Shown here: positions 3,268 to 48,076 of the stretch, one piece after another
Layout: each line of letters starts with the position of its first letter
How positions within the stretch are numbered: the stretch's first letter is position 1
Assembly: GCA_020631955.1 (NCBI GenBank)
Contig: JACKGL010000002.1
Coordinates: 77,860-141,859 of the forward strand
Direction: 5' to 3'
Origin: Candidatus Nomurabacteria bacterium
GTDB taxonomy: Bacteria > Patescibacteriota > Minisyncoccia > Phycocordibacterales > UBA9973
Length of the DNA: 64,000 nucleotides
The notes under the pieces: model-generated
What the model was told of the DNA's origin: nothing
The model's input: only the letters and a program-made list of their open reading frames with translations
The model's database searches: none
Position numbers and translations under genes: made by a program

Positions 3268-4500
3268 TTAGTTATCGTCGTCGTCATCACCTCCACCGTG
3301 ACCCGAATTGTCGTCGTCTTCATCTTCATCTTCACCACCACTACCGTGACCCGAATTGTCGTCGTCCAGCTCTTCTTCATCTTCTTCGTCATCTTCATTA
3401 TTTATGTTCCCATGGCCAGAATTATCGTCATCTAATTCTTCCTCACTATCATCTTGGTCGTCAGAATCATGTTCTTCATCTTCAGAATCGTCAGAAAATG
3501 ACTTCCCTGGGTTGTTGTCGTCTATCCTATCATCATCGTTACCATGCCCTTTGTTATCATCTTCATCGCCATCATCCTCGTCGTCATCTTCCGATTTATC
3601 TTTTATACGGATTTCTCCATCTTTGAATCTTATATCTATATTGTCTGTTTTTATTCTAAAATCGTCATCTTTTATATCTATTTTTGTACCGTCGGTATAT
3701 TTTATATCTATTCTCTCTATTTCTTCATCATCCACATAGTACAACAAGAGGTCAGCTAGTAAAGACTTTAATTCATCACTTTGTGCTTTATCAGATAAAG
3801 ATTCTATTGCTTCTACGGTATCATCAAAACTTTCTTTAGAGACACCATCTTCTATAGTAGATACATTACCTTTATCTTTCGGTCTACTTGCTCTATCCTC
3901 TGTTTCAACAACCATTATTTTCCTAAGCGACTCTATATCTATAAAATAATTTTCAGACACCTCAGACAGAACCTCTTCTGGGTCTGTAGAACTAGACATG
4001 AAGTAATACTTCACATCATCAACTTCTATTTTTGCTACAGTTATATCTGTAAATATATCTATTTCAAAAGCAGTTAGGTTTCCAGATGATAAGTCTATTG
4101 ATGTATTTTCTGATTTTGATGTATCATCACTAGAATCGTCTTGTAAAACTTCCTGTAATTCTTCTACTCTTTCTTCAGCAAACTTAACTCTCAATTTTTC
4201 TTTTGTATTCTCTCCAGCCAAAAAGTAACGAACTTCTTCTATACTTTTATCTACTTTATATAATGCATCTCCTGGTTTTGCTTCATTAGAAGCTACAGCA
4301 GTACCGCCAAGACCTAATAATACTGCTAAAAATATTGCTATTGTTCCCATACGTATACTAAATACTCTTATAATACTAGGAGTTCCGACTTTTTTGACTC
4401 CGTTTTTTTCTAATAAAACCTTGTTCCAAATTTGGTTTCTTTTTAATTCAGAAATTTTTTGAATTTTTACGTTATTTAATTTTTTTTCAATACTATTCAT
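3268..4500 (-). CDS. membrane-anchored DUF5667-like protein with a poly-acidic repeat tail; candidate anti-sigma factor
   Basis: 410 aa. One TM helix (MGTIAIFLAVLLGLGGTAVA) followed by PGDALYKVDKSIEEV, which resembles DUF5667. The C-terminus is D/E-rich with DDDNSGHG repeats. The start overlaps the stop of the upstream sigma gene by 8 nt. Confidence 0.55.
   Translation of the reverse strand: MNSIEKKLNNVKIQKISELKRNQIWNKVLLEKNGVKKVGTPSIIRVFSIRMGTIAIFLAVLLGLGGTAVASNEAKPGDALYKVDKSIEEVRYFLAGENTKEKLRVKFAEERVEELQEVLQDDSSDDTSKSENTSIDLSSGNLTAFEIDIFTDITVAKIEVDDVKYYFMSSSTDPEEVLSEVSENYFIDIESLRKIMVVETEDRASRPKDKGNVSTIEDGVSKESFDDTVEAIESLSDKAQSDELKSLLADLLLYYVDDEEIERIDIKYTDGTKIDIKDDDFRIKTDNIDIRFKDGEIRIKDKSEDDDEDDGDEDDNKGHGNDDDRIDDNNPGKSFSDDSEDEEHDSDDQDDSEEELDDDNSGHGNINNEDDEEDEEELDDDNSGHGSGGEDEDEDDDNSGHGGGDDDDDN
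3296..3432 (-). repeat. in-frame tandem repeat encoding the DDDNSGHG acidic motif
   Basis: A 23-nt perfect repeat, ccgtgacccgaattgtcgtcgtc, lies at 3296-3318 and 3344-3366 (48-nt period). A degenerate third copy lies at 3410-3432. Confidence 0.85.
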
Positions 4501-5008
4501 AGTTTAACATCTTCCCTCTTATTTTTTTTACAGCTCTGTTGTGTAAAACTCTTGCATTACCTTCAGATATATTCATAACAAAAGATATAGAATCAAAATC
4601 TAAGTCTAAAAAATATCTTAATTCTATTATTTCTTTATATCTTTTACTTAAAGAACTCACGCACTTTAGTAAATCTTCATGACTATCAAGATTAATATCT
4701 TCTTCTAAAGAATAAGTTTTGGATAAATCAGAGTATTGTACAAAAAATTTCCTATATTTATATATTTTTCTTTTAACAATAGTAAATACATAGCCGTAAA
4801 AATGTGCTTTGGATATATATATAAAATCAGACATGTTATTCCATAAACTCACAAAAACTTCCTGACAGATATCATCTGCATCATTTTCATTCTTCACTCT
4901 GACTTTTATATATTTGTATACTTTATCAAAAAGCGCATCATAAAGAATTTTAAAGTTTTCATTTGAGTTTTGATCCTTACACTTTTTTACAATTTCATGT
5001 ATCTCCAT
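4493..5008 (-). CDS. RNA polymerase sigma factor, ECF/sigma-70 region 2 plus region 4 type
   Basis: 171 aa. Region-2-like DDICQEVFVSLW and a region-4 HTH, YKEIIELRYFLDLDFDSISFVMNISEGNARVLHNRAVKKIR. Confidence 0.8.
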   Translation of the reverse strand: MEIHEIVKKCKDQNSNENFKILYDALFDKVYKYIKVRVKNENDADDICQEVFVSLWNNMSDFIYISKAHFYGYVFTIVKRKIYKYRKFFVQYSDLSKTYSLEEDINLDSHEDLLKCVSSLSKRYKEIIELRYFLDLDFDSISFVMNISEGNARVLHNRAVKKIRGKMLNYE

Positions 5009-6735: not shown

Positions 6736-7653
6736 ATGTCGCAAAACGAAATCCAAAGATATAAAAGAGAGTTTCTAGAGCATGTAGAGATAGAAAAAGG
6801 CAACAGTCTAAAGACTGTCGAGAACTACGATAGATATTTAGAAAGGTTCTTCGAATTTGCAAAAATTTCTAAGCCTGGAGATATCACAGAAGACAAGATC
6901 CGCGAATACAGACTGCACCTAAACAGACAGCCGGGCATAAAAGTCCGAGGGCAATCTCAAGCAACACTAAAGAAAAATACTCAAAATTATCACCTTATAG
7001 CTCTCAGAGCTTTTTTAAAATACTTGATGCGACGTGGTCAAAAGTCTTTGTCGCCAGAAAAAATAGAACTCGCAAAAACAAAAGAAAGACATCTAGATCT
7101 GGTGTCTGAAACAGAACTGTCGAGACTTCTATCAGCTCCAAAAGGTGCAGATGAAAAATCACTTCGAGACAGAGCTTTGCTCGAATTATTTTTTTCTACT
7201 GGACTTCGTTTATCCGAACTTTGTTCACTCAACAAAGATCTCGATCTTTCTAAAGATGAATTTTCTATCCGCGGTAAAGGAGAAAAAGTACGTGTAGTTT
7301 TTCTTAGCGATAGCGCAAGAAGTGCTATCAAAGAATATCTAAAAGCAAGAAAAGATTTCTTGGAACCTCTTTTTGTCCAAGTATCTTTCAACAAAAAAGG
7401 AGATGGCAGGCTCACCCCGAGATCTATAGAACGTATTGTAAAACACTATGCTATAGCTGCTGGTATCTCAAAAAAAGTCACCCCTCACGTGCTAAGACAC
7501 AGTTTTGCCACAGACCTTCTTTCCAACGGTGCAGATATAAGAAGTGTACAGATGATGCTCGGTCACGCCAACATAGCAACCACACAAATATATACACACG
7601 TTACCAATAAACAACTAAAAGAAGTTCACAAAAAGTTTCATAGTAAAAAATAA
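6736..7653 (+). CDS. tyrosine-type site-specific recombinase, XerC/XerD family
   Basis: 305 aa. N-terminal SAM-like core-binding domain. The catalytic region has LRHSFATDLL and LGHANIATTQIYTHV. Confidence 0.9.
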   Translation: MSQNEIQRYKREFLEHVEIEKGNSLKTVENYDRYLERFFEFAKISKPGDITEDKIREYRLHLNRQPGIKVRGQSQATLKKNTQNYHLIALRAFLKYLMRRGQKSLSPEKIELAKTKERHLDLVSETELSRLLSAPKGADEKSLRDRALLELFFSTGLRLSELCSLNKDLDLSKDEFSIRGKGEKVRVVFLSDSARSAIKEYLKARKDFLEPLFVQVSFNKKGDGRLTPRSIERIVKHYAIAAGISKKVTPHVLRHSFATDLLSNGADIRSVQMMLGHANIATTQIYTHVTNKQLKEVHKKFHSKK

Positions 7654-23990: not shown

Positions 23991-24374
23991 CTAAAAATCT
24001 ATCATGTCCACCCGGACATCTTTACCAGATATGTATACTGCCATACATACCAACTTTATAGATTCATACTTTTCCACATCATGACTTCCCTCGTATAATG
24101 CCACTGTTTTTTCAAATCTTTCTCTTTTTTTAGGTGTCACATTTTCTTCTGGTTTGTATTCAGAGATCTTATCTAGAGGTGTATTTTTATAATTTCTAGT
24201 TTTAACCTCAACAAAAAACAGAGTATTATTTTGTTCAGCTATTATATCTATCTCCCCTCCTTGAAAAGTAAAGTTTCTTTCAATTATAGAAAAACCCTTA
24301 TTTTTCAAATATTTTACAGCCAGATTCTCCCCCAACTCCCCTACTTTTTGAGTTTTAGAAGTAAATTTTTTCAT
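23991..24374 (-). CDS. yraN: YraN-family (UPF0102) endonuclease-like protein
   Basis: Start at ATG 24374 (MKKFTSKTQKVGELGENLAVKYLKNKGFSIIERNF...GEIDIIAEQNNTLFFVEVKTR), a typical YraN motif set. The upstream ORF extension covers the palindrome. Confidence 0.8.
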   Translation of the reverse strand: MKKFTSKTQKVGELGENLAVKYLKNKGFSIIERNFTFQGGEIDIIAEQNNTLFFVEVKTRNYKNTPLDKISEYKPEENVTPKKRERFEKTVALYEGSHDVEKYESIKLVCMAVYISGKDVRVDMIDF

Positions 24375-24432
24375 ATGTATATTATGAAATATTTCACCCA
24401 TAAAAGCCAGTTTCATCCAAAAAAGACATTTT

Positions 24433-24454
24433 ATATGTTTCACGTGAAACATAT
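24433..24454. repeat. 22-nt perfect palindrome ATATGTTTCACGTGAAACATAT (copy a of the GTTTCACRTGAAAC motif)
   Basis: Self-complementary by inspection and flanked by AAAAGAC / GTCTTTT arms. Lies about 60 nt upstream of the yraN start. Confidence 0.9.
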
Positions 24455-24629
24455 GTCTTTTTAAAGCACTCAAAAAATGTCTTTTATCAAAATATCCTTA
24501 TTTTAAAGGATATTTTAAAATCGACAGTCTTTTTAACTGTGTCTTTTATGCACAATATACACATGGTTATCCCCAAAAGTGTCTTTTTAGTTTCATGTGA
24601 AACCCGATTTTTGGTGAAAATACTATATG

Positions 24630-24701
24630 TGCACCCGGAAGGACTCGAACCCTCAATAACGGTTCCGAAGACCGTTGTGATATCCATTTCACCACAGGTG
24701 C
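24630..24701 (-). tRNA. tRNA-Arg (anticodon TCG)
   Basis: GCACCTG TG GTGA AATGGATA TCAC A ACGGT CTTCGGA ACCGT TATT GAGGG TTCGAGT CCTTC CGGGTGC A. 72 nt, no encoded CCA. Confidence 0.9.
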
Positions 24702-24830
24702 GTTAGAAAATATTATACCACTTAAAGGTTAAATACAAATCTATATTGATTTATCTCTAAAATTGTATATAATTCATCTGTTGTTAAAAGTTGCGGTTTT
24801 ATTGCAACTTTTAATTTTTAAAAATAAAAT

Positions 24831-24901
24831 GCGGGTATAGTTTAGTGGTAGAATGTCTGCCTTCCAAGCAGAACACGGGAGTTCGATTCTCCCTACCCGC
24901 A
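24831..24901 (+). tRNA. tRNA-Gly (anticodon TCC)
   Basis: GCGGGTA TA GTTT AGTGGTA GAAT G TCTGC CTTCCAA GCAGA ACAC GGGAG TTCGATT CTCCC TACCCGC A. 71 nt, no encoded CCA. Confidence 0.95.
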
Positions 24902-24953
24902 CTAAAAATAAGAATATTTTCTTAACCTTTATTATTTCTTTTTTGAGTTTCAC

Positions 24954-26459
24954 ATGAAACAAATAGATCAAAATAATATCCCAATATATATCATAGATAC
25001 CATAAAAACCCTTAAAAATAAGGGTTTTGAGGCATATATCGTAGGTGGTTGTGTAAGAGATCTTATCCTTAAAAGAGAACCTAAAGACTGGGACATTACG
25101 ACAAATGCCACCCCAGAAGAAATACAATCTTGTTTCATAAAAACAGTCTATGAGAACAACTTTGGTACCGTTGCTGTGGTTATAGAAAATACTGAGGAAA
25201 ATAAAAAGTATTTTTCTTCTGATGAAGATAAAAATATAATTATAGAAATAACACCTTACAGAACAGAGGGGGTGTATTCTGATGGAAGGCATCCAGACAC
25301 TGTAGCTTTTGGAAATAATCTAGAAGAAGACCTGCAGAGAAGAGATTTCACGATCAACGCTATGGCTTATGATCCTATAAACGACATTCTAAAAGACATA
25401 TATGGTGGTTTAAACGACATAGAAAAAAGAGTCATAAAAACAGTCGGGGAAGCCAAAGATAGGTTTTCTGAGGACTCTTTGAGAGTATTTCGAGCTATAA
25501 GATTTGCCGTACAGCTCGATTTTACTGTTTCACATGAAACAATAGAAGGTATTATGAGTACAAAAGAGGGTCTTGAGAGAGTTTCTAAAGAAAGGATAAG
25601 AGATGAGTTTATAAAAATAGTAGAATCTCCAAACCCTGCTTTTGCGCTAGGTTTTATGCACAAAATAGACATTTTGAAGCATATTTCCCCAGAAATAGAA
25701 GAGGGGGTGGGATGTAAGCAGGGAGGAGCTCATAAATATGATGTATTTGAACACCTTATACAGGCTCTTCAGCATGCTGCAGATAAAAACTGGCCTTTAG
25801 ATATAAGACTTTCTGCACTGTTTCATGACATAGGAAAACCAAGAACCAAAAGAGTTCCTGGTAAAAACATAAAACCTACTTTTTACGGTCATGAGGTGGT
25901 AGGCGCAAAAATGGCTAAGAAAATACTTGAAGATCTAAAGTTTTCACGTGAAACAATAGATAAGGTGGTAAAAATGGTCAGATATCACATGTTTTTCTCT
26001 GATACTGAGCAAATAAGTCTTTCAGCAGTCAGAAGAATAGTAGCCAATGTTGGACCAGAGAATATATGGGATCTGATGAAAGTCCGTGAGTGCGATAGGG
26101 TAGGTATGGCAAAAGCTGAAGCGCCATATAGACTAAGAAAATATCATGCCATGATAGAGGAGGTGATGAGAGATCCTATTTCTGTGAAACAGCTTAAAAT
26201 AAATGGCGATTACATGATAAAAGAGTTACACGTGAAACCAGGGAGACGTATGGGCTGGATGCTACACGCTCTTTTGGAAGAAGTTCTGGATGATCCAACC
26301 AAAAACGACATAGAATACCTGGTAAATCGCGTAAAAGACATGGAAAACCTAACGGACACTGACTTAAGGACACTAGGGGAAGCAGGGAAGAGTAAGAAGG
26401 ATGAACTAGAGGAAGCAGAAGTCACAGAGCTTCATAAAAAGCATAATGTAAAAAAATAA
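24954..26459 (+). CDS. cca: CCA-adding tRNA nucleotidyltransferase (class II, with HD domain)
   Basis: 501 aa. Contains GGCVRDLIL...DWDI, RRDFTINA, RALRFA-like FRAIRFAVQL and HD-domain LFHDIGKP...RYHMF. Confidence 0.9.
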   Translation: MKQIDQNNIPIYIIDTIKTLKNKGFEAYIVGGCVRDLILKREPKDWDITTNATPEEIQSCFIKTVYENNFGTVAVVIENTEENKKYFSSDEDKNIIIEITPYRTEGVYSDGRHPDTVAFGNNLEEDLQRRDFTINAMAYDPINDILKDIYGGLNDIEKRVIKTVGEAKDRFSEDSLRVFRAIRFAVQLDFTVSHETIEGIMSTKEGLERVSKERIRDEFIKIVESPNPAFALGFMHKIDILKHISPEIEEGVGCKQGGAHKYDVFEHLIQALQHAADKNWPLDIRLSALFHDIGKPRTKRVPGKNIKPTFYGHEVVGAKMAKKILEDLKFSRETIDKVVKMVRYHMFFSDTEQISLSAVRRIVANVGPENIWDLMKVRECDRVGMAKAEAPYRLRKYHAMIEEVMRDPISVKQLKINGDYMIKELHVKPGRRMGWMLHALLEEVLDDPTKNDIEYLVNRVKDMENLTDTDLRTLGEAGKSKKDELEEAEVTELHKKHNVKK

Positions 26460-32664: not shown

Positions 32665-35600
32665 ATGGCTGAAGAAAAAAAAATCCCCGGAGACACACCT
32701 GAGGAAACTAACCTAGACCCAGATCAACTGAGGAACATGCTTGGGGACCAATACAGAATAGTAGAGAAAGGTGGTAACTCAAAAAAAGAATCTAAAACTA
32801 ACAAGACATTAAATACTGTCATAAACATATCTGGTGTAAATATAAAAAGAGGGGCGGTTCTCAAGGTCCCTGGTATTGAAGATTATTACAAAATATCCAA
32901 AGTGGATATAAAGGAAAATATAGTAAAAGCCACCATACACAGACATGATGGAAGTACTGATGAACAAATATTTTCTATAGAAAAAGACGAAAGTGGTCAT
33001 GAAAACATCAAAGAACTTTTTGATGAAAAATTCTTCGATTTGAAAGATTATCAAAAAAGTTTTAGTAAAAAGAAAAGTTCTGGAGGAAGTATATCAGAAG
33101 TAAAAAAGACTATTGGTAGTTTTGAAAAAAAATACGAAGAAGAAGAGTCTTGGCGACAAGAAAGGAAAGAAGTGGCAGAAGCTCTTAGGGGTCTACCTTT
33201 TAGGTACACATATTTTTATGATGATGGTGGAACAGAGTATAAAATACTTTTCAACGACATAAACACTCAAAAAACAAAAATAGAAGTTTTAAAAACAGAT
33301 GGTGAAAAAGAAATCAGAGAAATGGATTTTGATGAACTCAGATCTGTATATGATGACTTCATCGAAAAAACATTGAAAGAGGAGCTTCCATTAAAAGGTG
33401 GTAAAATTTTCTTAGGTGAAGAATCTTTTTACGTTATATACGTAGATTATTACTCTCAGAAAATTTCCATTTTAGAAAATGATGAGAAAAAAACATATAC
33501 TTTTAATGAGTTTTTTGATAAGTTTGAAAATGCAGAATACGAAGATCCAGAAAATAATGTGGATAAAAAAAGAGATGCAAGACTAAGAAAAACTGACTCT
33601 TTTATGTATAAAACCGAAGATGCAGAAGGTAAGATTACAGAAACAGAAATGTATTTGGCTAAAATACAATCAGGAGAAAGAGGTCTTGTTGTATTTCCTA
33701 AAGGTGAAGCACGTTGTGTGTATTTGAGCCATTCACAAATAATATCAGCTATTGGATCAGAAGCTCACAAAAAACTTCTAGATGATTTAAGAGAAAAAAT
33801 GGAAACAGGTTGGCATGGATATAAATATCTTGAAAATTTCAAATTTAAAAGAATAAGTGAATTGAGTCTGGAGGACTTGGAAGAAGAACTAGATAGGGCA
33901 TCTGCTTTTTTGATGAAAATACCAGAATCAATGAATAAAAAAATATCATCTGTATCTGCATATATAGAAGATATACAAAGTAGAATCGATCTAAAGAAAA
34001 AAGAGACCAAAGAAAAAAATAAAACAAGTAAAGGATATGAGTACATAAGGCCAGAAGGTAAAAGTATGGCTGAGATTTTGGTAGAAGTAGAAAAAGCGAC
34101 AAAATATACAAATAGATTTTCAAAAAGTAGCAGCATTGAGTCTCACAAATCTTACATAGATAGCTTATATACAGAGATAAAAACCATAATCTTAAACAAG
34201 ATAAATCTTTCCGAAAAAAATATCACAAAAGAAGAGTTGCAAAAAAGATTGGATAACTCTTTACTGATAGGTGAAAAAATAAAAGACCTGGGTGAAAAAG
34301 AGATCACAAATCTTTTCAATAAATATTTGAATAAATTAAAAAATGAAATAGGGCGTGCCGGGAAACAAAGACCAGCCCCAGATGAAATATTTGTAGAATC
34401 AAAAGAAGAAAAAGAGGCCAGACTAACAAAACAACTAGAAATATTTAATAACAAAAATATTTCAGACACTGAAAAGATGCACCAAATAATGCTACTAGGT
34501 GTAGATAAAGTAGTGATACATGGTAAAGACTCATTTACAAAAGGAAGAAGAGGCACTAAAGCAGGTGAAAGAATATATCAAACAACAACAGGGTCTATAG
34601 ACATAGGAGACAATGTAAAAGAATACGACAAAAGAACTACAAGCAAAGAAGAGGGTGTCATGCCTGCGGTAAAGTCAGGCCCTGACATGGATGCAAGATT
34701 GTCCATGATGTTGTTTGAGTATTCAAATTACTATCAAGATGGAGGTATCCAGCCAGTATATGAATACACACAAAAAGGAGGTCAGACTACAGACACAGAA
34801 CCAGGAGTGTATATGCACCTAGATACTGGTGGTAAAAATGGTAGTTATATAGAAAATGTAGATGGAAAGATCCATATATATTTTGACAATCACTCAGAAG
34901 AAAAAACATCCGTAAAATCTTCAGCACATTCTATACATGACTTTATAAAAGAACACAACAATTTCAATGAGAAAAAAATAAAAGAGTCTGGCCTTTCAGA
35001 AAAAGATATGGATAAAATCCTCGACTACGTGAGGATAGTGGATAATGTAGAAATGCCTATGGAATATAATTTCATACAGAACACTTATCCAAAAACAATA
35101 TTGGCTTTGCAAGATGAAATCAAACTTTCCGAGGTTGTAAGGTGGCTCAAGAAAAAAGGAGTAAAAAGTGAAATAAGAGGTAAAGATTTGGACACTATTG
35201 TGGAGCTTCAAAATGGGACTAAAAAAACACTTGGGGAGTTGGTAAAAGATAGTGAAGCCAAAATGGCAAAAACCATAGACAGCATAAATAAAACTTTCCA
35301 CGCACAAATAAGAACTGGTATAAAAGTCTCCACAAAAGAGCTCGGCTATTTCGCGTATCACACAGGACCAGCTTTTCTGAAAGATGCATACATAGGAGCC
35401 AGATCAGAGGGATTCAACTCTTTTGTCCGTTTTGACAAAAAAAACAACAGGCTCATGATAAATTCCAACAAAAACCTCAAAGGAATGAAAGAAAAAATAG
35501 AAAAATCTGGCCTATCAACAAGGATAAATCTAGTAAGAAGCCATATGTTGTTTGTGGATTTTGACGATTCGATTACAGAAGAAAAAGTGGTAGAATTACT

Positions 35601-35742
35601 TGGTATAGAAAGAACAGAAAACAGATATTCAGGAATGTCTAAAGAAGAACTAAAGAAAGCAAAAGAAGAAAATAAGAAAAAGCTTCTCGAGGTATCACAA
35701 AGGATAAACGAATTAAAAGCATCTATAAGAAATAGTAAATAA
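32665..35742 (+). CDS. large hypothetical soluble protein (1025 aa), first gene of the 22-kb block
   Basis: No TM helix, signal peptide or NTP-binding motif seen. K/E-rich. The N-terminal third shows three or four reiterations of a ~50-70-aa pattern (Y-x-I/V ... I-x-V/I-L ... F-x-E-L/F). Confidence 0.7.
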   Translation: MAEEKKIPGDTPEETNLDPDQLRNMLGDQYRIVEKGGNSKKESKTNKTLNTVINISGVNIKRGAVLKVPGIEDYYKISKVDIKENIVKATIHRHDGSTDEQIFSIEKDESGHENIKELFDEKFFDLKDYQKSFSKKKSSGGSISEVKKTIGSFEKKYEEEESWRQERKEVAEALRGLPFRYTYFYDDGGTEYKILFNDINTQKTKIEVLKTDGEKEIREMDFDELRSVYDDFIEKTLKEELPLKGGKIFLGEESFYVIYVDYYSQKISILENDEKKTYTFNEFFDKFENAEYEDPENNVDKKRDARLRKTDSFMYKTEDAEGKITETEMYLAKIQSGERGLVVFPKGEARCVYLSHSQIISAIGSEAHKKLLDDLREKMETGWHGYKYLENFKFKRISELSLEDLEEELDRASAFLMKIPESMNKKISSVSAYIEDIQSRIDLKKKETKEKNKTSKGYEYIRPEGKSMAEILVEVEKATKYTNRFSKSSSIESHKSYIDSLYTEIKTIILNKINLSEKNITKEELQKRLDNSLLIGEKIKDLGEKEITNLFNKYLNKLKNEIGRAGKQRPAPDEIFVESKEEKEARLTKQLEIFNNKNISDTEKMHQIMLLGVDKVVIHGKDSFTKGRRGTKAGERIYQTTTGSIDIGDNVKEYDKRTTSKEEGVMPAVKSGPDMDARLSMMLFEYSNYYQDGGIQPVYEYTQKGGQTTDTEPGVYMHLDTGGKNGSYIENVDGKIHIYFDNHSEEKTSVKSSAHSIHDFIKEHNNFNEKKIKESGLSEKDMDKILDYVRIVDNVEMPMEYNFIQNTYPKTILALQDEIKLSEVVRWLKKKGVKSEIRGKDLDTIVELQNGTKKTLGELVKDSEAKMAKTIDSINKTFHAQIRTGIKVSTKELGYFAYHTGPAFLKDAYIGARSEGFNSFVRFDKKNNRLMINSNKNLKGMKEKIEKSGLSTRINLVRSHMLFVDFDDSITEEKVVELLGIERTENRYSGMSKEELKKAKEENKKKLLEVSQRINELKASIRNSK

Positions 35743-35743
35743 T

Positions 35744-38700
35744 ATGAGCACAAGTAAAGAAGAAGAGTTGGCAAAACTCCTAATACAACAAAAAGATCTT
35801 GCTGGACAACAAGTAGAGATAAATGAAGCTGAAAATTTGGGTAAATTAAAACTCACTGAAGAAGATATCGAGAGAATGATGTCTGCAGTAAACAGCGTTA
35901 AGGAAGACTATAAAAATTATACAAAAGAGCAGTTAGAAGCAGCTCAAGAAAATATAGCTTATTTTGCTTCCAAACTAGAAGATAATGGTAAGTACGGCGA
36001 AGCTGCTGTAGTAAACAAGCTTCTAGGAAACCTAAAAGGAAGAGTGGAAGAAATAAAGAGAGATCCAAAACTTCAAGAAAAAGTAAAAAAAGACGCAGAA
36101 GAGAAGGATAAAAAAATAAATGAAAAGAAGTCTGAATCAGATAAAAAAGATAAGGAGATGATAGAAGCTGTTAGACAAGCTATCTTGGCCTCTGGTGTGC
36201 ATATGTCAGACGAAGAGTTCGAGGCTCTTGATAAAGAAGAAAAAAGAGAGGCGGTAAGAAAGATAGTAAAGGAAAAAATAAAACTAAAAGAAGAATCAGA
36301 CAGAATACAAGCTGAAGTCGAAGCTCTAAACAACTCTATAAAGGAAAAAGTCGAAGCAATAAAGAAAGTTAAAACAAAGAGAGATGGTTGGGCTCTTGAA
36401 AAAGAGATCACAGACCTTACATCTAAAAAACTAGACCTAGAAAAAAGATACGAGGAAATAGATGGAGAGCTAGCAGAAGGAAGAAAAATACTTCTTGAAA
36501 ATAAATTTATTGGTTATGACAATATACCTTACGAAAAACCAACAAAAGAACAAGAGAAGCAGGCCAAGTTAAACGAGCTCTACGACGATGCAAAATACAG
36601 AGAACAAAGAAGAAACTTGTTCGAAGAGAAAAAAGCCTTAGAAGAAAAAGAAACTGCATACTTGAAACAAAAATCTGCTTTAGCAGAAAGATACAAAGCT
36701 TTTGTAAATGAAGACGGGGAAATAATAAAAGACCCTAAGGAAATGAACCAAGAGGAAAAAGAAGTTTTAGCTCAGTATATAGAAGACATGGTCAGTTTAA
36801 CGAACCTTAACAAAGAGCTCACCACTGAAAGAGGCGTTTTTGATCAAAGACAAGACGAGCTTTTTGACGAAATAAGATCTGCGAGAAATAGAGACGGAGC
36901 TGTAAAACTATCAAATGCCAGAAATGCATACATAGAAAGCTACACCAACCACTACAAAAACATGGGTGCCATGAAGAAATGGGGAGTAAATGCACTAAAA
37001 AGACTTGGGCTCGCTAGAGGAGAGGTAGGTATGCCTAAGGAAGTAAGAGACTTACAAAAAGCTTACTACGAACAAGTAGACAACGTTATCCAAAAAGCAG
37101 AGGCCAGACTTATAAAAGAAGGTAACTACAATGAAAGAGAAAGAGCTAGAGTAATAGAAAAATACAAACAAAGATTTTATAACATCGAACAAACAAGAGC
37201 AGAAAATGCAAAACTCAATCAAATGAGAATAGATGCTTTTGAGTCTGATAAAAAAGCTTTGATAAGAAAAATGGGCTCTTGGTATACAGGCAAATCAAAG
37301 GCCGCTGTTTTAGCTAGGATCACTTTAGGAGCTGGAGTAGGTGCAGCCACAGGAGGAGTGCTAGGCGTAGCAAGATACGCAGTTAGATTTGGTACTGGTA
37401 TGCTAGCAGGTCTAGGACTTAACGTAGGATTAAACAAAGTATGGAAGGAAGAAGAAAACGCTCAAAAGAGACTATTGGATCTTGAAAAGAGACAAAAAGC
37501 TGGACTTGTGAGTATCTCAGAGTTTGATCTAGAATACAGAAAAATAATGCAAAAAATGAATGCTTCCAAAGCTGTAAAGAAGGCCATCGTCACAGGAGGC
37601 GCCTTTGGTGCAGCATATGGAGCTGCTGGAATGTTCGACAACGTGGCACAAGCATATACACCAGTAGACAACCCAGATGCTACTATTCCAGATCACAACG
37701 TAGATCATCCAGGGCCAGGAGATACGGGCTCTCCAGAAAATAGCACTATTACTATAGAGGTGGATAAAGGCCAGGGAGCAATATCAATGTTCAGAGACTT
37801 GCAACACTCTCTAGAAGACAAGTTCCCTAAAGATGCTTCTGGTAACTACCCAGAAGGCACACCTGCATCTGCAATACATATAATGGATACTGACCCACAC
37901 CAACTAGCTATAGAATACAACATGTACAATCCACAAGATGTAGCTGAGTCAGCCACAGTCCATGTAGGAGCTACTTTTGATTACGACACAAATACTGGTG
38001 AACTTGTATTTAAAGACCCTTACTATCACGACATGGTATTGGAAGATGGGGATATGAGCACAACACCAGGACAATATGACGGAAGATTTGGAGACACTGG
38101 AGGAGACAATCACACAGGTGATGTAAGTGGCTCCGACCAAGGAGATAAACTAGTCAACGTAGAAGTGAAAAAAGTTCCTACTGGTATAGAAGTCACACCT
38201 GTAGGTGTTGATATGCAAGTAGATCCAGGTGTAGTAGACCAAAGTTCTACAGGAAACATAGACAGTAACGGGCATACAGATACAACACCAGACCAGAGTT
38301 CACCAGAAGCTGCTTTTGATAACAACTTCGATAGTAACTTTGACTTCAGCCAATACGATTATCTGTCAGACAACACTAAGCTAGCTTTGGATGACATAAT
38401 AAAAGACATGAACCCTAACGAACAACAAGACTTTGTAAATGTGTTTACGGATAAAGCAAATGATTTGTTCAACAACCAGACAGGCTCTGTTGAAAATGCA
38501 GTATTCCAAGAAAAAGGTGGTTGGAACCTACTGGAAAACAGAGAAATAAAAGCCAGTGCTTTTATGGGAGGAGTGGAAAGTTCTGGTCCTGGTAGTGTAT
38601 ACGATGCTATAAAAAATAGCTCTGATTATCAAAATGGTAAATTCTGGGGAATAGACTACAACCCAGGTGAAAACTTCACTGACTATTTCTTAAGAGCCCT

Positions 38701-38749
38701 GTATGAGTCGAAAACATGGGAAAATGGTGGTTATAAAGTAGCACAATAA
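35744..38749 (+). CDS. large hypothetical membrane protein (1001 aa): ~500-aa K/E coiled coil, Gly/Ala-rich TM hairpins, ~380-aa acidic C-terminal domain
   Basis: Starts 1 nt after the previous stop. TM candidates are VLARITLGAGVGAATGGVLGV, FGTGMLAGLGLNVGL and AIVTGGAFGAAYGAAGMF. No family motif recognised. Confidence 0.7.
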   Translation: MSTSKEEELAKLLIQQKDLAGQQVEINEAENLGKLKLTEEDIERMMSAVNSVKEDYKNYTKEQLEAAQENIAYFASKLEDNGKYGEAAVVNKLLGNLKGRVEEIKRDPKLQEKVKKDAEEKDKKINEKKSESDKKDKEMIEAVRQAILASGVHMSDEEFEALDKEEKREAVRKIVKEKIKLKEESDRIQAEVEALNNSIKEKVEAIKKVKTKRDGWALEKEITDLTSKKLDLEKRYEEIDGELAEGRKILLENKFIGYDNIPYEKPTKEQEKQAKLNELYDDAKYREQRRNLFEEKKALEEKETAYLKQKSALAERYKAFVNEDGEIIKDPKEMNQEEKEVLAQYIEDMVSLTNLNKELTTERGVFDQRQDELFDEIRSARNRDGAVKLSNARNAYIESYTNHYKNMGAMKKWGVNALKRLGLARGEVGMPKEVRDLQKAYYEQVDNVIQKAEARLIKEGNYNERERARVIEKYKQRFYNIEQTRAENAKLNQMRIDAFESDKKALIRKMGSWYTGKSKAAVLARITLGAGVGAATGGVLGVARYAVRFGTGMLAGLGLNVGLNKVWKEEENAQKRLLDLEKRQKAGLVSISEFDLEYRKIMQKMNASKAVKKAIVTGGAFGAAYGAAGMFDNVAQAYTPVDNPDATIPDHNVDHPGPGDTGSPENSTITIEVDKGQGAISMFRDLQHSLEDKFPKDASGNYPEGTPASAIHIMDTDPHQLAIEYNMYNPQDVAESATVHVGATFDYDTNTGELVFKDPYYHDMVLEDGDMSTTPGQYDGRFGDTGGDNHTGDVSGSDQGDKLVNVEVKKVPTGIEVTPVGVDMQVDPGVVDQSSTGNIDSNGHTDTTPDQSSPEAAFDNNFDSNFDFSQYDYLSDNTKLALDDIIKDMNPNEQQDFVNVFTDKANDLFNNQTGSVENAVFQEKGGWNLLENREIKASAFMGGVESSGPGSVYDAIKNSSDYQNGKFWGIDYNPGENFTDYFLRALYESKTWENGGYKVAQ

Positions 38750-41763: not shown

Positions 41764-42639
41764 ATGCCCATCAAAGAAACTTGGCAAAAAATAAAACCTA
41801 GTAAAAAAATAATTAAAATGTTTTTAGCTGTTTTGCTTATTGTGGCAGTAATAATAGTAGTAAAAACAGGTGTATACAAAAAAATAAACTTCAAAACAAA
41901 AACAGCTAACCTACCACAAGGCAACCTAACTCTTTCAGAACTAGGGGAAAATGATAGTGACAAAGATGGTATAGCAGACTGGGAGGAGATACTTTGGGGC
42001 ACCGATCCAGAAAAATACGATACTGATGATGATGGCGTGTCTGATGGAGAAGAAATAAGATCAGAAAAAGTAAAAAGGGGCGCCCTTGCAAACACCAACC
42101 CAAACACTACCGATATTTTTGCAAGAGATCTTTTGGTAACAATATCTAGTCTTTATGATACTAATATAATAAACATAGATATACTAGCACAAGAAGTGGT
42201 GAACAATATTACTAAAAATAAAGAGCCTTTTTATACAACACAAAACATAACAATTACCAACAATGTTGAATCATACTTTAACAACTTTCTTTATATCTTG
42301 AGTCTGGATATTACAGGTTGGGAAGAATTTGTTGATTTTATTAAATACTCTAATGGGGATACAAACATAGAATTAATGAATATAGAAGAAAAGGGTACGG
42401 AAATTATTGAGATATCAAAAGAAGTTATTAATACTCCTGTTATAAGCGAGATGAAGGAGCACCATCTAGAATTAGCAAATAGTATATACTTTTTAGGTGA
42501 GAGTTTAACTAAGATGTCAAAGATAGAGTCAGACCCTATTCAGTCAATAGAAGGGTATTATTCATACTTAAAATACTACGATATTTTAAATCAAACCATA
42601 TTAATATATAATAATGAGATTGAGGAACTAATAAATTAG
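41764..42639 (+). CDS. membrane-anchored protein with thrombospondin-type-3-like Ca-binding repeats
   Basis: 291 aa. TM helix MFLAVLLIVAVIIVV, then DSDKDGIADWEEILWGTDPEKYDTDDDGVSDGEE (DxDxDG repeats). Confidence 0.6.
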   Translation: MPIKETWQKIKPSKKIIKMFLAVLLIVAVIIVVKTGVYKKINFKTKTANLPQGNLTLSELGENDSDKDGIADWEEILWGTDPEKYDTDDDGVSDGEEIRSEKVKRGALANTNPNTTDIFARDLLVTISSLYDTNIINIDILAQEVVNNITKNKEPFYTTQNITITNNVESYFNNFLYILSLDITGWEEFVDFIKYSNGDTNIELMNIEEKGTEIIEISKEVINTPVISEMKEHHLELANSIYFLGESLTKMSKIESDPIQSIEGYYSYLKYYDILNQTILIYNNEIEELIN

Positions 42640-42641
42640 TT

Positions 42642-44684
42642 ATGAAAAAGAAGGCTTACATTATAATACTTGCGATGATATTAATATTTTCTCCTGCAAA
42701 TAAATCTTTTGCTTTTGATGCAGATGACTTCGCAAATATAGGTCAGTTCTATAATGATCTAAGTAAAAAATACACTGATTTTCTAGAAAAAAACAAACTA
42801 ATAAAAGACTTGGCAAATTCTGCAAAAGTAATAGTTCAAAAAAAGTTGTCCAATTCTGCTCTACTTAACATAACCAACTCTTCTGTAAATTGGATAAATT
42901 CTGGTTATTCAGACTGGGGAGCTTCTGGTGAACCGTTCTATCTAACTGATCCAAATTCATTTTTCAAAAATCTAGCTGATAAAGAAATAAATAAAATAGT
43001 AGATGAGATAGCTTTCAACCCAGAAAAAAATCCATACGGAGCATCTATAGCCCAAGATGTTATCAACGCTTCCTTAGATAATTTTGATGACAAATTTACA
43101 TTCACTTTAGAAAAAACAATAGGTGACAAATGGGAAGATTTTGAAGATGACTTCACTGTAGGTGGATGGAATGGATATCTAGATTTTATTACCAACCCAG
43201 CAAACAACCCTATAGGCGCAGCTCTTTTAGTACAAGATGAATTAACCAAAAGACAATCCACAGAAGTAGCTAATACGGAAAGAGAATTATCTAACAGTGA
43301 TGGTGGTGGATTTTTATCTCTAAAAGAGTGTGTAAAATGGAAAGATGACTCCCCCCCAGAAGATATAGATGGTTACACTTTTGATATACTAAGTGAGTTC
43401 GGTATTAGTGATAGCTGTGAAGAATACAGGACCACAACTCCAGGCTCTGTTATATCAAACACACTATCAGCAGTAACACAAACCACCTTTGAAAATATAA
43501 ACCTAAAAAATGCTTTAGGAGGGGATTTAATATCATCCCTAATAGACAACTTATTTACAAAAATACTTACTGATGGACTAAATTACATAACAAACTCAGT
43601 AAATATCGGAGAGAATTATATAACTGAAAATTATCTAGGTCAGGACATACTTGCCACCATAGGAAATATAGATATACCAGGAGTGGAGACTTTAAACCTA
43701 CAAGAGATTTTTGAAGGACAATTAGATCTGGAGACTCTCATATATGACACAAGTAACACTCCAGAACAATATACTCTAGACGAACTAGAAACAGTGAACG
43801 AGATACTGGCTTTATCTAAACAAATACCAGTATTGTTGAAAGACTTAGATGGCTGTATCCCAGGACCAAGTTATGGTTGGGAGCAACGTTTCGACGAAGC
43901 GTTAAACAGAACAATATCCACAATACTGCAAGACGACTCTAGTGTATACAACAATATACAAACATCGGCAAAACTAGTGAAAAGTATGATAAAAAATAGA
44001 TATTTGTATAGTGGAGCAAACATACCTTCAGCTTCTTCTATGAATTATATTATAGGTTCTACTATATCAAACACTAACCCAGGACAATATGAACAAACCT
44101 TGGGGAATAAATCATTAGCTTTATCTAGATTAAACAACCTAAAGAATGAGTATTTATCCACACCTCCAACAGATCAAGAAGCACTCAATCAGATAGCGAT
44201 CAGTTATTTAGCAATAGAAGAAAGTCTCAGTGATACAAGTACACTACAAAACACAGAAAATACAAAGAAACAACTACAAGATGATATTGATTATATAAGC
44301 AGTTTGATAAATCAATGTCAGACAGAAAAAAACACAAACACTTTTTGGGATGATGATGGAGATTTTGATACAAATGGTGATTATCTAGCAGATATAAAAG
44401 TAGATCTTTATGGAGACTATATCCCCGATGGTAATGGGGTTATGAGTGCTCCACATGTTGTAGACCTGGGCTTCGTAGCATCTCCTACTGGATACAGTGC
44501 CCTGACTTTTCCATTGCAAACAAACAGTAGTATAACCAATGAAATATACTTCTACTGCCAAAGTATAGTAAACGATAAAATAAATAGTAAACTCCTAGAA
44601 TACCACGGGGACTTTGTGTATGGGTTGGGACAAAATCTAAAGTGTCTGGAATTTTACTTTGGAGATGTGTATGATTATGAATAA
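42642..44684 (+). CDS. secreted hypothetical protein (680 aa)
   Basis: Signal-like MKKKAYIIILAMILIFSPANKSFA. N/S/T/D-rich; no motif recognised. Confidence 0.6.
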   Translation: MKKKAYIIILAMILIFSPANKSFAFDADDFANIGQFYNDLSKKYTDFLEKNKLIKDLANSAKVIVQKKLSNSALLNITNSSVNWINSGYSDWGASGEPFYLTDPNSFFKNLADKEINKIVDEIAFNPEKNPYGASIAQDVINASLDNFDDKFTFTLEKTIGDKWEDFEDDFTVGGWNGYLDFITNPANNPIGAALLVQDELTKRQSTEVANTERELSNSDGGGFLSLKECVKWKDDSPPEDIDGYTFDILSEFGISDSCEEYRTTTPGSVISNTLSAVTQTTFENINLKNALGGDLISSLIDNLFTKILTDGLNYITNSVNIGENYITENYLGQDILATIGNIDIPGVETLNLQEIFEGQLDLETLIYDTSNTPEQYTLDELETVNEILALSKQIPVLLKDLDGCIPGPSYGWEQRFDEALNRTISTILQDDSSVYNNIQTSAKLVKSMIKNRYLYSGANIPSASSMNYIIGSTISNTNPGQYEQTLGNKSLALSRLNNLKNEYLSTPPTDQEALNQIAISYLAIEESLSDTSTLQNTENTKKQLQDDIDYISSLINQCQTEKNTNTFWDDDGDFDTNGDYLADIKVDLYGDYIPDGNGVMSAPHVVDLGFVASPTGYSALTFPLQTNSSITNEIYFYCQSIVNDKINSKLLEYHGDFVYGLGQNLKCLEFYFGDVYDYE

Positions 44685-44736
44685 AATAAACTATTTCAAA
44701 TTTTGAAGTATACATAGTATAATTTACCTATATACT

Positions 44737-47256
44737 ATGCCCCAACTGCGACTAAAATTCAAAAAATACACAGTATTGACTTTGATACTAGTCTTTTTGT
44801 TTGGAAATCTTATTCCTTTAGCTAGTACTCATGCTGGGGAGATAGATCTTCACGAAGCTTTCTTGCGAGCAGATGACCCTGATACTGATAATCATTATCA
44901 AGAATACCTCACTACAGCGGCCAGTCTTTCTAAAGATGAGGTAGGGGGAACCGTGGTTAAATTTGACATAGCAGTAGGACCAAATGGAGAAGGTATGAGT
45001 CCTATGACTTGGAATGCAGACGGCACTATAGATGACGTTGGTGGTTGGTACCCGGTGTATAAAGATCAAGATGAGGATGTGATAGTGCCACAAGATTCTG
45101 ATCCTACACCTTCACCAGGGGGTGGAAGTTATGGTGTATATGTAGATATAGGTACTAGCCATGAAATAGAAAACTATTCTGATATATATTTGATACATAT
45201 CAATAAAATAGACACTGTCACAGATATAGTAAAAACAGTTGGTATTACAGATGCGATATTTAGCAATCCTGCTGCCTTCACAGCACAAATAGCAAATATA
45301 GAATATTACGTCACTGGTCTAGAAAAAAATACTACGTATTATGCTCAAGTAAGAATAGAAGAGAGAGACAGCAACGGCGTCTCACCCATAATAATACCTA
45401 TTCCTATAAGTATAGACTCTACAGCTTTTAGTAGTGTAATAGAATTTAAAACAACAGAAGAAGAAACTGCTTTAGATACTACAGTTACAACAGATGGGGG
45501 TACTTTTGTGGCTGCTTCCGAAGGAAACACTGAAAATCCAAGCATTCTCAAAGGTTTGGAGTGCAGTATTAATGTATTAAAAGGAGAATTCCAAATAGGA
45601 GCTTGTGTAATAGCTGGTCTTGCTTATATTTTTTGGGCCTTATTCCAAGTATCCGCTTTGTTACTCACAGTAGCAGCAGGTCTGATGGATGTATTTATAA
45701 ACTTCTCTTTGAGTAGTATTTTCTATTCTGGTAACTCTTTTGTAAATGAGGGTTGGAGGCTGGTAAGAGACGTGGTAAATATATTCTTTATTATATCGCT
45801 ACTTTGGACAGCTATATCTATCATATTAGGATTAGGCCAAGGAAGGACCAACCCTTACAAACAAATAGCTGCCATAATAATAGTGGCTATACTTATAAAC
45901 TTTTCTCTACTTTTATCTAAAATAGTAGTCGACTCCGGCAACGCTTTGGGTAGAATATTCTACAACAGTATAGAAGTCACAGGAGTAAAAGAACCCTCGC
46001 TTACTACAGGCACGGGACTAGAAGAGGTCAGTGTTTCGAAAGCTATAGTTAAAGGTCTTAATATAACAAAGATCATAAACACAGAGGCCATGGAGGGTCT
46101 TCGTGAACTAAAAAATACCAATACTGCAATAATATTTATTATTATTCTAGCTATAGCTATCAACGTCATAGCTATCATAGCTTTCTTGAAAATATCTATG
46201 GCTTTTGTTGGACGTATAGGGGGTATATGGCTTGCTATGATACTCTCTCCTTTTGCTTTTGTCTCGAAGATCATACCTGGTGGAGACAAGTTGGGTGACT
46301 ATAGTTTTGGTGGATGGTTTTCAAATCTGCTGAAAGTTTCTTTCATGGCACCTATCTTTTTATTCTTCTTATACTTGATAATACTTGTCATAAACTCCAA
46401 CTTTATAAACGGACTTCTTACTATACCTCAAGACGGACAAGCTTTTACTTTCTTCCAATTTATAATAATTATTTTTGTCCAAGTACTCTTGATTATAGGA
46501 CTCCTCAACAAAGCTAAAGATGTTTCTATAAAGATGGCTGGAGAAGTGGCAGGGCAAGTAGCAGGAGCTGTAAGAGGTCTCTTAGTCACTGCTGGCCTTG
46601 CGGCTGTAGGAGGTGCGGCGTTATTAGGGAGGGGGGCAGCAGCAGGAGCAAGTGCTTTTGGAAAGTCTGGACAAAGAGCGGCAGCCGGAACAAGTAGAAA
46701 TGGACTTGATAGACGTATCGGAAATTTTGCTAACAACACAAACTATACAAGAGGCTTCGAATCAAGACAAGAAAAAATTAATGCCCTCAAAAAAGGAAGA
46801 CGTTCTGAAAAAACTTTTGATAAATATTCAAAACAATTCACAAATGACCCGAAGGCAAAATACAAAGATCTAAGTGAAGAAGATAAATTACGTGTTATAG
46901 AAAAAATGCAAGGAAAATTAGGGGTAAGAGAAACTTCTAGACTAGAGTCTGAACTAAGCAATTACAATAATATGTCTAAATCAGATAAGAGGAAAGCCAA
47001 ACTATATCACAATGCATCTTCTGGTTCTTATGATATAAGAGACCTTGCAAATGTAAAACAGTGGTATCTAAAAATGCCGGCCATAGCTATAAGAGAGCTC
47101 TTTAAAAATGCTTCAGTGGAAACAGGAAAAGCACAAAAGAATTTCTGGAAAGATATAGGAGAGGCTATTAAAAAGGGAGCAGAGTCCGCAGATATAAAGC
47201 TCAATATAGACACAAGTAGTCGTAAAATAAAAGAAGATGAAGATAAAGATGAATAG
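44737..47256 (+). CDS. VirB6/TrbL-like polytopic membrane protein with an N-terminal extracellular FN3-like module
   Basis: 839 aa. Signal-like N-terminus; YVTGLEKNTTYYAQVRIEE is an FN3-like strand motif; seven or more TM helices from about aa 280 to 620; G/A-rich then K-rich cytoplasmic tail. The VirB6 assignment rests on topology and context only. Confidence 0.5.
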   Translation: MPQLRLKFKKYTVLTLILVFLFGNLIPLASTHAGEIDLHEAFLRADDPDTDNHYQEYLTTAASLSKDEVGGTVVKFDIAVGPNGEGMSPMTWNADGTIDDVGGWYPVYKDQDEDVIVPQDSDPTPSPGGGSYGVYVDIGTSHEIENYSDIYLIHINKIDTVTDIVKTVGITDAIFSNPAAFTAQIANIEYYVTGLEKNTTYYAQVRIEERDSNGVSPIIIPIPISIDSTAFSSVIEFKTTEEETALDTTVTTDGGTFVAASEGNTENPSILKGLECSINVLKGEFQIGACVIAGLAYIFWALFQVSALLLTVAAGLMDVFINFSLSSIFYSGNSFVNEGWRLVRDVVNIFFIISLLWTAISIILGLGQGRTNPYKQIAAIIIVAILINFSLLLSKIVVDSGNALGRIFYNSIEVTGVKEPSLTTGTGLEEVSVSKAIVKGLNITKIINTEAMEGLRELKNTNTAIIFIIILAIAINVIAIIAFLKISMAFVGRIGGIWLAMILSPFAFVSKIIPGGDKLGDYSFGGWFSNLLKVSFMAPIFLFFLYLIILVINSNFINGLLTIPQDGQAFTFFQFIIIIFVQVLLIIGLLNKAKDVSIKMAGEVAGQVAGAVRGLLVTAGLAAVGGAALLGRGAAAGASAFGKSGQRAAAGTSRNGLDRRIGNFANNTNYTRGFESRQEKINALKKGRRSEKTFDKYSKQFTNDPKAKYKDLSEEDKLRVIEKMQGKLGVRETSRLESELSNYNNMSKSDKRKAKLYHNASSGSYDIRDLANVKQWYLKMPAIAIRELFKNASVETGKAQKNFWKDIGEAIKKGAESADIKLNIDTSSRKIKEDEDKDE

Positions 47257-47270
47257 TATATAATATTATT

Positions 47271-48059
47271 ATGGACAAATCCCAAGAAACACTTACAGCA
47301 ATAATAGCAGAGCATATGAAAACACTTCCTCCAGAAGTGAAAGATGTTGTTACTGGTTTTGATTGGTTGCAAACACTCCAAGACATAGCAGCGAGATACA
47401 AACTCAACATAGAGCAACAAGGTGTTTTAGGTACTGAGGTGACTATGAGCATATTGGGTATTACTCATCCAGATGATTTTTCTCATGAGCTCCGCAACTC
47501 TCTAAACATAGGAAAAGAAGAGACAGAGAACATGATAGTAGATATAAATGAAAAAATATTCCGTCCTATCAGGGCCAAGCTTATAGGTGTGTACAATAAA
47601 AACCAAGAAGAGAAAGCTCGTCTTATATCTGGAGAAGAAGAGGAAGAAGAGTCTGAAGACATAAATGAGTATGCGGGTGAGAAAATATCTCTAGCCCAAG
47701 AACTAACAAGTGCTATGAAGAAAAAAGAGGAGAAGCCTATACCACAAATAGACAGCACTAAACAATTTTCAGAAAACATAGAAAAAGTGGGTCAGCAGCC
47801 AGAAACTCCAAAACCAATAGAACCAAAAATAATAAATCCGACTCCAGCACCTGCAACATTTGTAGAAAATAATACTCCAAAAGAAAAAGAAGTGTTCACT
47901 CCAGCAAAAGAAGACAATATGTCTTCCAATATACTAAACAACAAACTAGGAAATATGTTTGGTGTTGAGAGAAAAGATTCAGATCATACTATAAAAAGAG
48001 AGGGTTCTTCTACAGAAAAAACACAAAGTAGCACAGATCCGTACAGAGAAACGGTTTAA
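47271..48059 (+). CDS. hypothetical soluble protein (262 aa)
   Basis: ORF in the operon; acidic/proline-rich C-terminal half; no motif recognised. Confidence 0.5.
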   Translation: MDKSQETLTAIIAEHMKTLPPEVKDVVTGFDWLQTLQDIAARYKLNIEQQGVLGTEVTMSILGITHPDDFSHELRNSLNIGKEETENMIVDINEKIFRPIRAKLIGVYNKNQEEKARLISGEEEEEESEDINEYAGEKISLAQELTSAMKKKEEKPIPQIDSTKQFSENIEKVGQQPETPKPIEPKIINPTPAPATFVENNTPKEKEVFTPAKEDNMSSNILNNKLGNMFGVERKDSDHTIKREGSSTEKTQSSTDPYRETV

Positions 48060-48076
48060 TTTGCTATAATATAATC

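Follow-up and report, generated by a model that had tools for sequence, protein, structure and literature searches.

A cluster of parS-like sites at the cca locus of a Candidatus Nomurabacteria genome, very probably a chromosomal centromere

The stretch of DNA analysed in this work, referred to as the window, comprises 64,000 nucleotides (nt) of a contig from Candidatus Nomurabacteria, a bacterium of the Patescibacteria, or Candidate Phyla Radiation (CPR), and corresponds to positions 77,860-141,859 of the forward strand of that contig; all positions given here follow the numbering of the window. It contains six copies of a palindrome packed into 1.8 kb at cca, the gene encoding the CCA-adding tRNA nucleotidyltransferase. 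Judging from their sequence, the six repeats are very probably chromosomal parS, that is, ParB loading sites that would form a chromosomal centromere. The kind of element is already known: chromosomal parS, the centromere-like site to which ParB/Spo0J binds, has TGTTTCACGTGAAACA (TGTTNCACGTGAAACA) as its published consensus, and the motif is textbook parS. A review has described parS as 'mainly TGTTNCACGTGAAACA', a highly conserved palindrome in the vast majority of bacterial chromosomes, and its table lists 2-22 parS copies per species, mostly near the replication origin, oriC. The parS reading is carried by the sequence identity with parS, the local uniqueness of the sites, their proximity to dnaA and the probable oriC, purifying selection at the level of DNA, and conservation of the locus.

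All six copies reported in an initial annotation of this DNA were recovered at their positions (Table 1). They are the matches to GTTTCAYRTGAAAC with no more than one mismatch in the whole 64-kb window and all fall in 24437-26238, while dinucleotide shuffles give an expectation of 0.03 matches and none of 100 shuffles reached six; the count check proposed in that annotation, run on the window, thus bears out that the motif is non-random. When the 16-mer TGTTTCACGTGAAACA was allowed up to three mismatches, the six cluster sites were again the sole matches in the window (0.27 expected), and no such site was found in approximately 10 kb of extra flank at either side. The extended motif had not been noticed outside the 1.8-kb stretch, and its absence elsewhere holds for the 64 kb and for the ~20 kb of flanks, the rarity being seen over the ~84 kb of sequence read from a contig of at least 643,671 bp. 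Five isolated CACGTG hexamers that lack the arms of the motif, also noted earlier, do occur in the window.

The copies carry from zero (copy a) to three mismatches (copies b and f) to the parS consensus, with one in copy d and two in copies c and e. For copy f the count of three refers to the T-form of the consensus; compared with TGTTNCACGTGAAACA, in which position 5 is N, it has two mismatches, and both are the outermost bases. CACATG or CATGTG replaces CACGTG in three of the six copies. It has been shown that the Noc-binding site (NBS) differs from parS at two positions per half-site. Over 150 related sites, the parS bases were found at G2 in 94%, at A7 in 92%, at the mirror position T10 in 92%, and at C15 in 89%, and five of the six copies in the window have the parS-type specificity bases (G2, A7, T10, and C15), the exception being copy e, with T at position 2. 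The commonest deviations in the related sites are C8 to T and G9 to A, and the same changes are found in copies b, c, and d. Other details of the initial annotation were reproduced as well: copy a is the core of a perfect 22-nt palindrome at 24433-24454, the 501-aa Cca open reading frame has its first ATG (24954-24956) at the centre of copy c, and the copies inside cca are read as VSHET, FSRET, and HVKP. The shared extension GAAACAA(A)TAGA is present in the window as described, but it lies outside the conserved element, since the flanks of the 150 related sites are without strong conservation. The suggestion that the palindrome points to a dimeric DNA-binding protein was right, the type of site being the ParB/Spo0J site parS.

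Conservation at related loci and selection on the DNA of the sites

Related loci were collected by a search with Cca, with one genome kept per species, which gave 80 loci whose Cca is 49-62% identical, each taken with 10 kb to either side. These relatives are labelled as Nomura-, Kaiser-, Adler-, Campbell-, Vogel-, and Taylorbacteria, Paceibacterota, and similar. In the counts over 81 loci, a site was called parS-like when it matched the 16-mer with no more than two mismatches. The density of parS-like sites was 0.3-1.4 per kb between -3.0 and +0.5 kb around the cca stop codon, and approximately 0.02 per kb, roughly 27-fold lower, in the remainder of the 10 kb on either side. At least one site was found in 50 of the 81 loci and at least three in 21, and the fullest loci of relatives held 8-10 sites, up to 10 in ~3.8 kb. 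Placement of parS near cca is therefore common but not universal among the related loci. The divergent order yraN(-)/tRNA/cca(+) is kept in 51 of the 80 relatives, and of the parS-like sites 68 are located in cca, 38 in yraN homologues, and 53 outside both genes. The cluster is kept at yraN/tRNA/cca throughout a CPR clade of class rank, the Paceibacteria. An unbiased search for 10-mers enriched near cca returned mostly conserved tRNA and coding words.

In relatives, the upstream parS sites often have variant palindromes beside them, GTTACA(C/T)GTGTAAC, in which A occupies the N position of each half-site, for instance at -711 (locus L019), -900 (L020), -690 (L030), and -1450 (L032) relative to the cca start. 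Judging from their sequence, these variants may be extra low-affinity ParB sites. The count at no more than two mismatches misses many of them.

Four of the six sites in the window (c, d, e, and f) are hosted by cca, and in relatives the sites recur at fixed columns of the Cca alignment. The slot of copy d is filled in 20 of the 81 loci, that of copy e in 6, and that of copy f in 8, and the start-codon slot of copy c (TFHMKH) is present in 3 other loci; further recurrent slots are located at Cca residues ~12 and ~492. The peptides encoded at these slots differ between Cca proteins with and without the site. At slot d, parS-bearing Cca reads VS[HYR]ET while the generic sequence is [TA]I[ED]xET, at slot e KFSRET stands in place of the generic KFPKKT, and at slot f ELHVKP in place of ELG[VI]KP. 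Cca residues at tolerant positions have thus been changed to spell parS.

Selection on the DNA was also seen with the coding content held constant. When synonymous codons were permuted within each cca gene, which keeps the protein and the codon usage of that gene, 5.1 +/- 1.7 sites were obtained with a maximum of 11 in 200 trials, compared with 70 sites observed. The initial annotation had considered that protein constraint alone did not obviously explain the identity of the copies, and this comparison across cca orthologs agrees with it. Furthermore, in the closest relative found (locus L209), whose Cca is 82% identical, five of the six copies are kept, with a, c, e, and f unchanged and d differing at 1 position in 16. 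Copies c-f together show 1 change in 64 nt, while the rest of cca is 21.5% divergent (binomial P = 3.5e-6), and copy a is intact although the surrounding spacer is 49% divergent. These results show purifying selection on the DNA of the sites that is independent of coding.

Table 1. Positions of the parS-like copies and of other features discussed in the text (numbering of the window)
Feature	Position	Strand	Description
yraN (UPF0102)	23991-24377	-	Pfam UPF0102; divergent from cca; homologues also carry parS-like sites
TGTCTTTTW repeats	24420-24588		Five exact (four direct, one inverted) and the variant AGTCTTTTT at 24527
parS copy a	24436-24451		TGTTTCACGTGAAACA, exact consensus; yraN/tRNA-Arg spacer, 59 nt upstream of the yraN start
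Three tandem degenerate DnaA-box-like 9-mers	24546-24575	+	TTATGCACA, ATATACACA, TTATCCCCA; between copies a and b
parS-like copy b	24589-24604		AGTTTCATGTGAAACC, 3 mismatches; just beyond the tRNA-Arg 3' end; weakest, doubtful
tRNA-Arg(TCG)	24629-24701	-	Between sites; member of a conserved tRNA block
tRNA-Gly(TCC)	24831-24902	+	Directly upstream of cca
parS copy c	24946-24961		AGTTTCACATGAAACA, 2 mismatches; overlaps the cca start codon
cca	24954-26459	+	CCA-adding tRNA nucleotidyltransferase, HD domain; Pfam PolyA_pol, PolyA_pol_RNAbd, HD, tRNA_NucTran2_2
parS copy d	25526-25541		TGTTTCACATGAAACA, 1 mismatch; in cca, codons ~191-196 (TVSHET)
parS copy e	25940-25955		GTTTTCACGTGAAACA, 2 mismatches; in cca, codons ~329-334 (KFSRET)
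parS copy f	26224-26239		AGTTACACGTGAAACC, 3 mismatches to the T-form; in cca (ELHVKP)
dnaA	56850-58205	+	Pfam DnaA_N, Bac_DnaA, Bac_DnaA_C; marker of the origin region
dnaA-dnaN spacer	58206-58382		DnaA boxes at 58216, 58226, 58251, and 58338 (last perfect)
dnaN	58383-59480		Downstream of dnaA; Pfam

The origin region, ParB, and the genes around the cluster

The genes rpmH-rnpA-yidC-jag are located upstream of dnaA (rnpA and yidC recognised by Pfam, with jag, an R3H gene, and rpmH beside them), and dnaA, dnaN, rnpA, yidC, and jag all lie within 54.7-59.5 kb. The dnaA-dnaN spacer contains a ~100-nt stretch of almost pure A+T in addition to its DnaA boxes, and these sequence features make it the most likely oriC. 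The cluster lies 31-33 kb from dnaA and the dnaA-dnaN spacer, which is ~5% of the contig of at least 643,671 bp, the position of oriC being a predicted one. parS sites normally sit inside an 'ori domain', and at this distance from the origin region the cluster is therefore inside the domain typical of parS. An rsmG-parA-parB arrangement was not found after rpmH-rnpA-yidC-jag/dnaA.

Several observations weigh against the parS reading. No parB or parA was detected in the window, in ~10 kb beyond each of its ends, or in the 10 kb on either side of cca in the 80 relatives. The search for these genes combined a motif scan based on the GERRxRA patch, phmmer queries with Spo0J and Soj of B. subtilis, and a ParB profile built from 223 sequences; the phmmer query recovers ParB in 122 of 122 control loci. 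In addition, ParB proteins were gathered from metagenomes with a degenerate DNA pattern for A+T-rich ParB, after which two ParBs from Patescibacteria (L116 and P0236) served as queries, and among the best 240 ParB matches none was labelled Nomurabacteria or Paceibacteria. Furthermore, 31 of the 81 related loci are without any site at no more than two mismatches near cca, five of the six copies in the window deviate from the parS consensus, and copy b is lost in the closest relative, where 8 of its 16 positions differ. Copy b is probably weak or non-functional as a predicted ParB site.

Canonical ParB (PF02195, PF17762, and PF23552) is nevertheless widespread in Patescibacteria. The queries L116 and P0236 returned mainly ParB of the Kuenenbacteria and Falkowbacteria type, and the clade labels among the best 240 matches were Kuenen-, Falkow-, Kerfeld-, Komeili-, and Buchananbacteria, the others being generic or unlabelled. 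Were there no ParB of standard specificity, it would be hard to account for a canonical 16-mer so strictly conserved among relatives this distant, and we therefore infer that this genome encodes ParB; on the basis of the site sequences, this ParB would bind the six sites. The source of one of the queries provides a parallel. L116 is carried on a metagenome contig from Hainich groundwater (ERZ1292640) and belongs to a Kuenenbacteria-like parA-parB operon that adjoins aspS. No parS at no more than one mismatch was found within 4.4 kb of this operon, which suggests that centromere sites lie away from parB in a Kuenenbacteria-like lineage too.

The mechanism that we propose takes its steps from the established ParABS pathway. 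Dimers of ParB (Spo0J), a CTPase, would recognise each 16-bp parS through their helix-turn-helix domains, bind cytidine triphosphate (CTP), close into clamps, and slide to the flanking DNA. With six close loading sites in 1.8 kb, they could build one dense, origin-proximal partition complex, which would tag the origin region, once newly replicated, to be segregated (by ParA, should the genome encode it) and would load the SMC condensin. By analogy, ParB bound at copies a and c might also damp the promoters of yraN and cca.

The protein encoded by cca is identical to one annotated at NCBI as 'CCA tRNA nucleotidyltransferase', and upstream of cca in relatives tRNA-Arg(TCG), tRNA-Pro(TGG), and tRNA-Gly recur. 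A 30-kb plus-strand block starts at cca, and its first genes include two neighbouring genes at 32665-38749 that encode proteins of ~1000 aa, K/E-rich and coiled-coil-like, in which no domain was recognised when the translations were read. Between the cluster and dnaA, co-oriented genes of membrane and secretion type occupy 41764-54715; with a VirB4-like ATPase (49166-50998) and a weak match to T4SS_pilin (51981-53417), this block resembles a type IV secretion or pilus-like machinery. Elsewhere in the window, a gene for a sigma factor of the extracytoplasmic function type (4493-5008) is followed by one for a DUF5667 protein (3268-4500), in which an extreme D/E/G/H-rich repeat (…DDNSGHG…) makes up the C-terminal third.

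Alternative readings of the locus

The cca locus also contains sequences that recall replication origins. At the position of the three tandem DnaA-box-like 9-mers of the window (Table 1), relatives have TTAT(C/A)AACA, ATACACACA, and perfect TTATCCACA, and over the loci L007-L086 a module TGTCYTTTAT(C/A)AACA-ATACACACATAG-TTATCCACA is located 0.35-0.75 kb upstream of cca. In many relatives, a perfect DnaA box in reverse orientation follows ~300 nt after the cca stop codon, flanked by TAAAGGACA/TGTCCTTTA repeats. In the zones upstream and downstream of cca in relatives, the enrichment of perfect DnaA boxes is 15-25-fold, and the module may serve as an origin, in DnaA titration, or in promoter control. 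The second element is the repeat TGTCYTTTW (reverse complement TAAARGACA), which is 3-5-fold enriched near cca in relatives and forms direct and inverted repeats around the DnaA boxes at both flanks of cca, for example TGTCCTTTATAAAGGACA. To our knowledge, no protein that binds it has been described. In the window, an inverted pair is also found at 3228/3248, and two TGTCTTTTW copies bracket parS copy a as an inverted repeat. A composite site made of parS and flanking TGTCYTTT was considered and rejected, as the bracketing was seen only in the window and in the closest relative and in none of 25 other upstream sites.

From these elements, the locus could be read as a replication-segregation hub, in which parS, DnaA boxes, and TGTCYTTTA/TAAARGACA together would make either an oriC distant from dnaA or a DnaA-titrating or regulatory region; less likely still within this alternative, the class could be without canonical ParB and the sites could have another reader. 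We give the hub a low, though not negligible, probability. The perfect DnaA boxes of relatives are single and not clustered, the one upstream of cca having degenerate neighbours, and the three of the window are degenerate, while the dnaA-dnaN spacer, with four boxes and an A+T-rich stretch, is a more typical oriC arrangement than the cca locus. The third-position guanine-cytosine (GC) skew within 10 kb of cca in L007-L086 showed no switch of sign at cca. It was ~0.06 more positive to the right than to the left of cca (bootstrap confidence interval 0.04-0.09, with gene strand controlled), and loci that have parS or DnaA boxes did not differ in this from loci that lack them. In addition, the gene-strand profile around cca is one-sided. 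The single boxes, the one-sided gene-strand profile, and a skew without a change of sign argue against an origin at cca.

The initial annotation had offered three explanations for the palindromes, none of which fits the sites. The first was an operator for a dimeric regulator of tRNA-maturation genes, taken here as a dimeric transcription factor that would co-regulate yraN, the tRNA genes, and cca. It is true that copy a lies ~60 nt upstream of yraN and that copy c lies over both the cca start codon and a promoter-like match at 24949-24977. In P. aeruginosa, moreover, ParB at an intergenic parS represses neighbouring genes, so a regulatory side-effect is plausible. However, the sequence is the exact canonical parS consensus, most of the copies are intragenic at codons that recur in many relatives, as is usual for parS but not for operators, and most sites in the window and in relatives are deep in coding sequence (cca, 68; yraN, 38). 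Up to 9-10 sites per locus is unlike the architecture of operators, and no regulator gene is linked to the cluster. We therefore regard an operator function as very unlikely.

The second explanation was an RNA mini-hairpin read by the CCA enzyme or by a nuclease, which would be located in the cca mRNA or in tRNA precursors. Copies a and d do fold better than shuffled sequences (-9 and -5.2 kcal/mol, z = -3.6 and -3.1), but the stems are weak, at -1 to -5 kcal/mol for five copies, and copies e and f show no folding advantage over shuffled sequences (z = -0.6 and +0.6) and yet are perfectly conserved. Conservation is equally strong in the 'loop' ACGT and in the 'stem', whose positions do not vary and show no covariation. 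Sites are also found on both sides of the divergent transcription units, including yraN on the other strand, and a search of Rfam returned no RNA family besides tRNAs at the locus. A role as RNA hairpins is thus scarcely credible.

The third explanation was a local target of recombination or methylation; taken here as targets of a restriction-modification, methylation, or site-specific recombination system centred on CACGTG, it is just as improbable. CACGTG is a type II recognition sequence, and a gene for a XerC/D-type recombinase is present at 6736-7653. Against this, the window shows no avoidance of CACGTG (8 observed, 2.7 expected, with the five armless hexamers elsewhere), CACGTG is missing from three of the six copies, and the conserved unit is 16 bp rather than 6 bp. 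The Xer gene is 17 kb from the cluster, and nothing recombinase-like flanks the sites.

Finally, the sites could simply follow from the protein motifs of Cca combined with A+T-rich codon usage, as all 81 Cca sequences have Thr at the end of the slot-d peptide (x-x-x-x-E-T) and GAA and ACA are likely to be preferred codons in an A+T-rich genome, but this is ruled out by the synonymous-codon shuffling (5 sites compared with 70) and by the altered peptides of parS-bearing lineages (for instance I[ED]x to VS[HYR]), and 2-3 of the copies and 53 related sites are non-coding or outside cca and yraN, respectively.

Comparison with known partition systems

In the searchable literature, nothing relevant was found on parS or ParB in Patescibacteria, Parcubacteria, or OD1. 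What is new here is the lineage and the conserved, gene-embedded placement at yraN/tRNA/cca in Paceibacteria, and the novelty is limited to these. If the six repeats are parS, a centromere has been located for an uncultivated, ultra-small CPR bacterium, and it would be one held at a single housekeeping locus, under selection on DNA so strong that it determines residues of an essential enzyme. The locus would then offer a clear case, found in nature, of a protein code overlapping a DNA-binding code. The cluster could also serve as a ready marker of the origin-proximal region in fragmented CPR metagenome bins and as a defined fragment for studies of ParB, CTP, and SMC biology in CPR bacteria.

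Clustered repeats of the ParB-family type are also known from P1 parS, F sopC, and the OB sites of KorB, which the sites here resemble. However, the centromeres of plasmids and prophages are plasmid-specific sequences beside their own parAB, whereas the sites here have the chromosomal consensus and lie among housekeeping genes. Another related palindrome is NBS of Firmicutes, with the core ATTTCCCGGGAAAT, which is read by the ParB paralogue Noc and has A and C at the specificity positions where the sites here have G and A. NBS copies are scattered over the chromosome and avoid the terminus, in contrast to the sites described here, which cluster at one locus.

Among chromosomal systems, C. glutamicum has 10 parS sites in ~35 kb. 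Tight parS clusters have also been reported for P. aeruginosa (parS1-4), C. crescentus (5 sites), and M. xanthus (22 sites near the origin). The cluster at cca is similar to those of P. aeruginosa, C. glutamicum, and M. xanthus in that packed loading sites near oriC would build one partition complex, and in clusters of the P. aeruginosa type the intergenic members can repress adjacent genes. It differs from these three in being denser, with six sites in 1.8 kb, and in belonging to a far smaller genome.

The 16-bp palindrome TGTTNCACGTGAAACA is the same as in the chromosomal parS of B. subtilis (Spo0J/parS), C. crescentus, and T. thermophilus. As with chromosomal parS in general, several copies with 0-3 mismatches are present, and they are origin-proximal, clustered, and often inside genes. 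Unlike known chromosomal parS, the sites belong to an uncultivated CPR bacterium, a parAB operon adjoins neither the sites nor dnaA, and the cluster is anchored at yraN/tRNA/cca, a placement that is kept among relatives whose Cca proteins are 49-62% identical.

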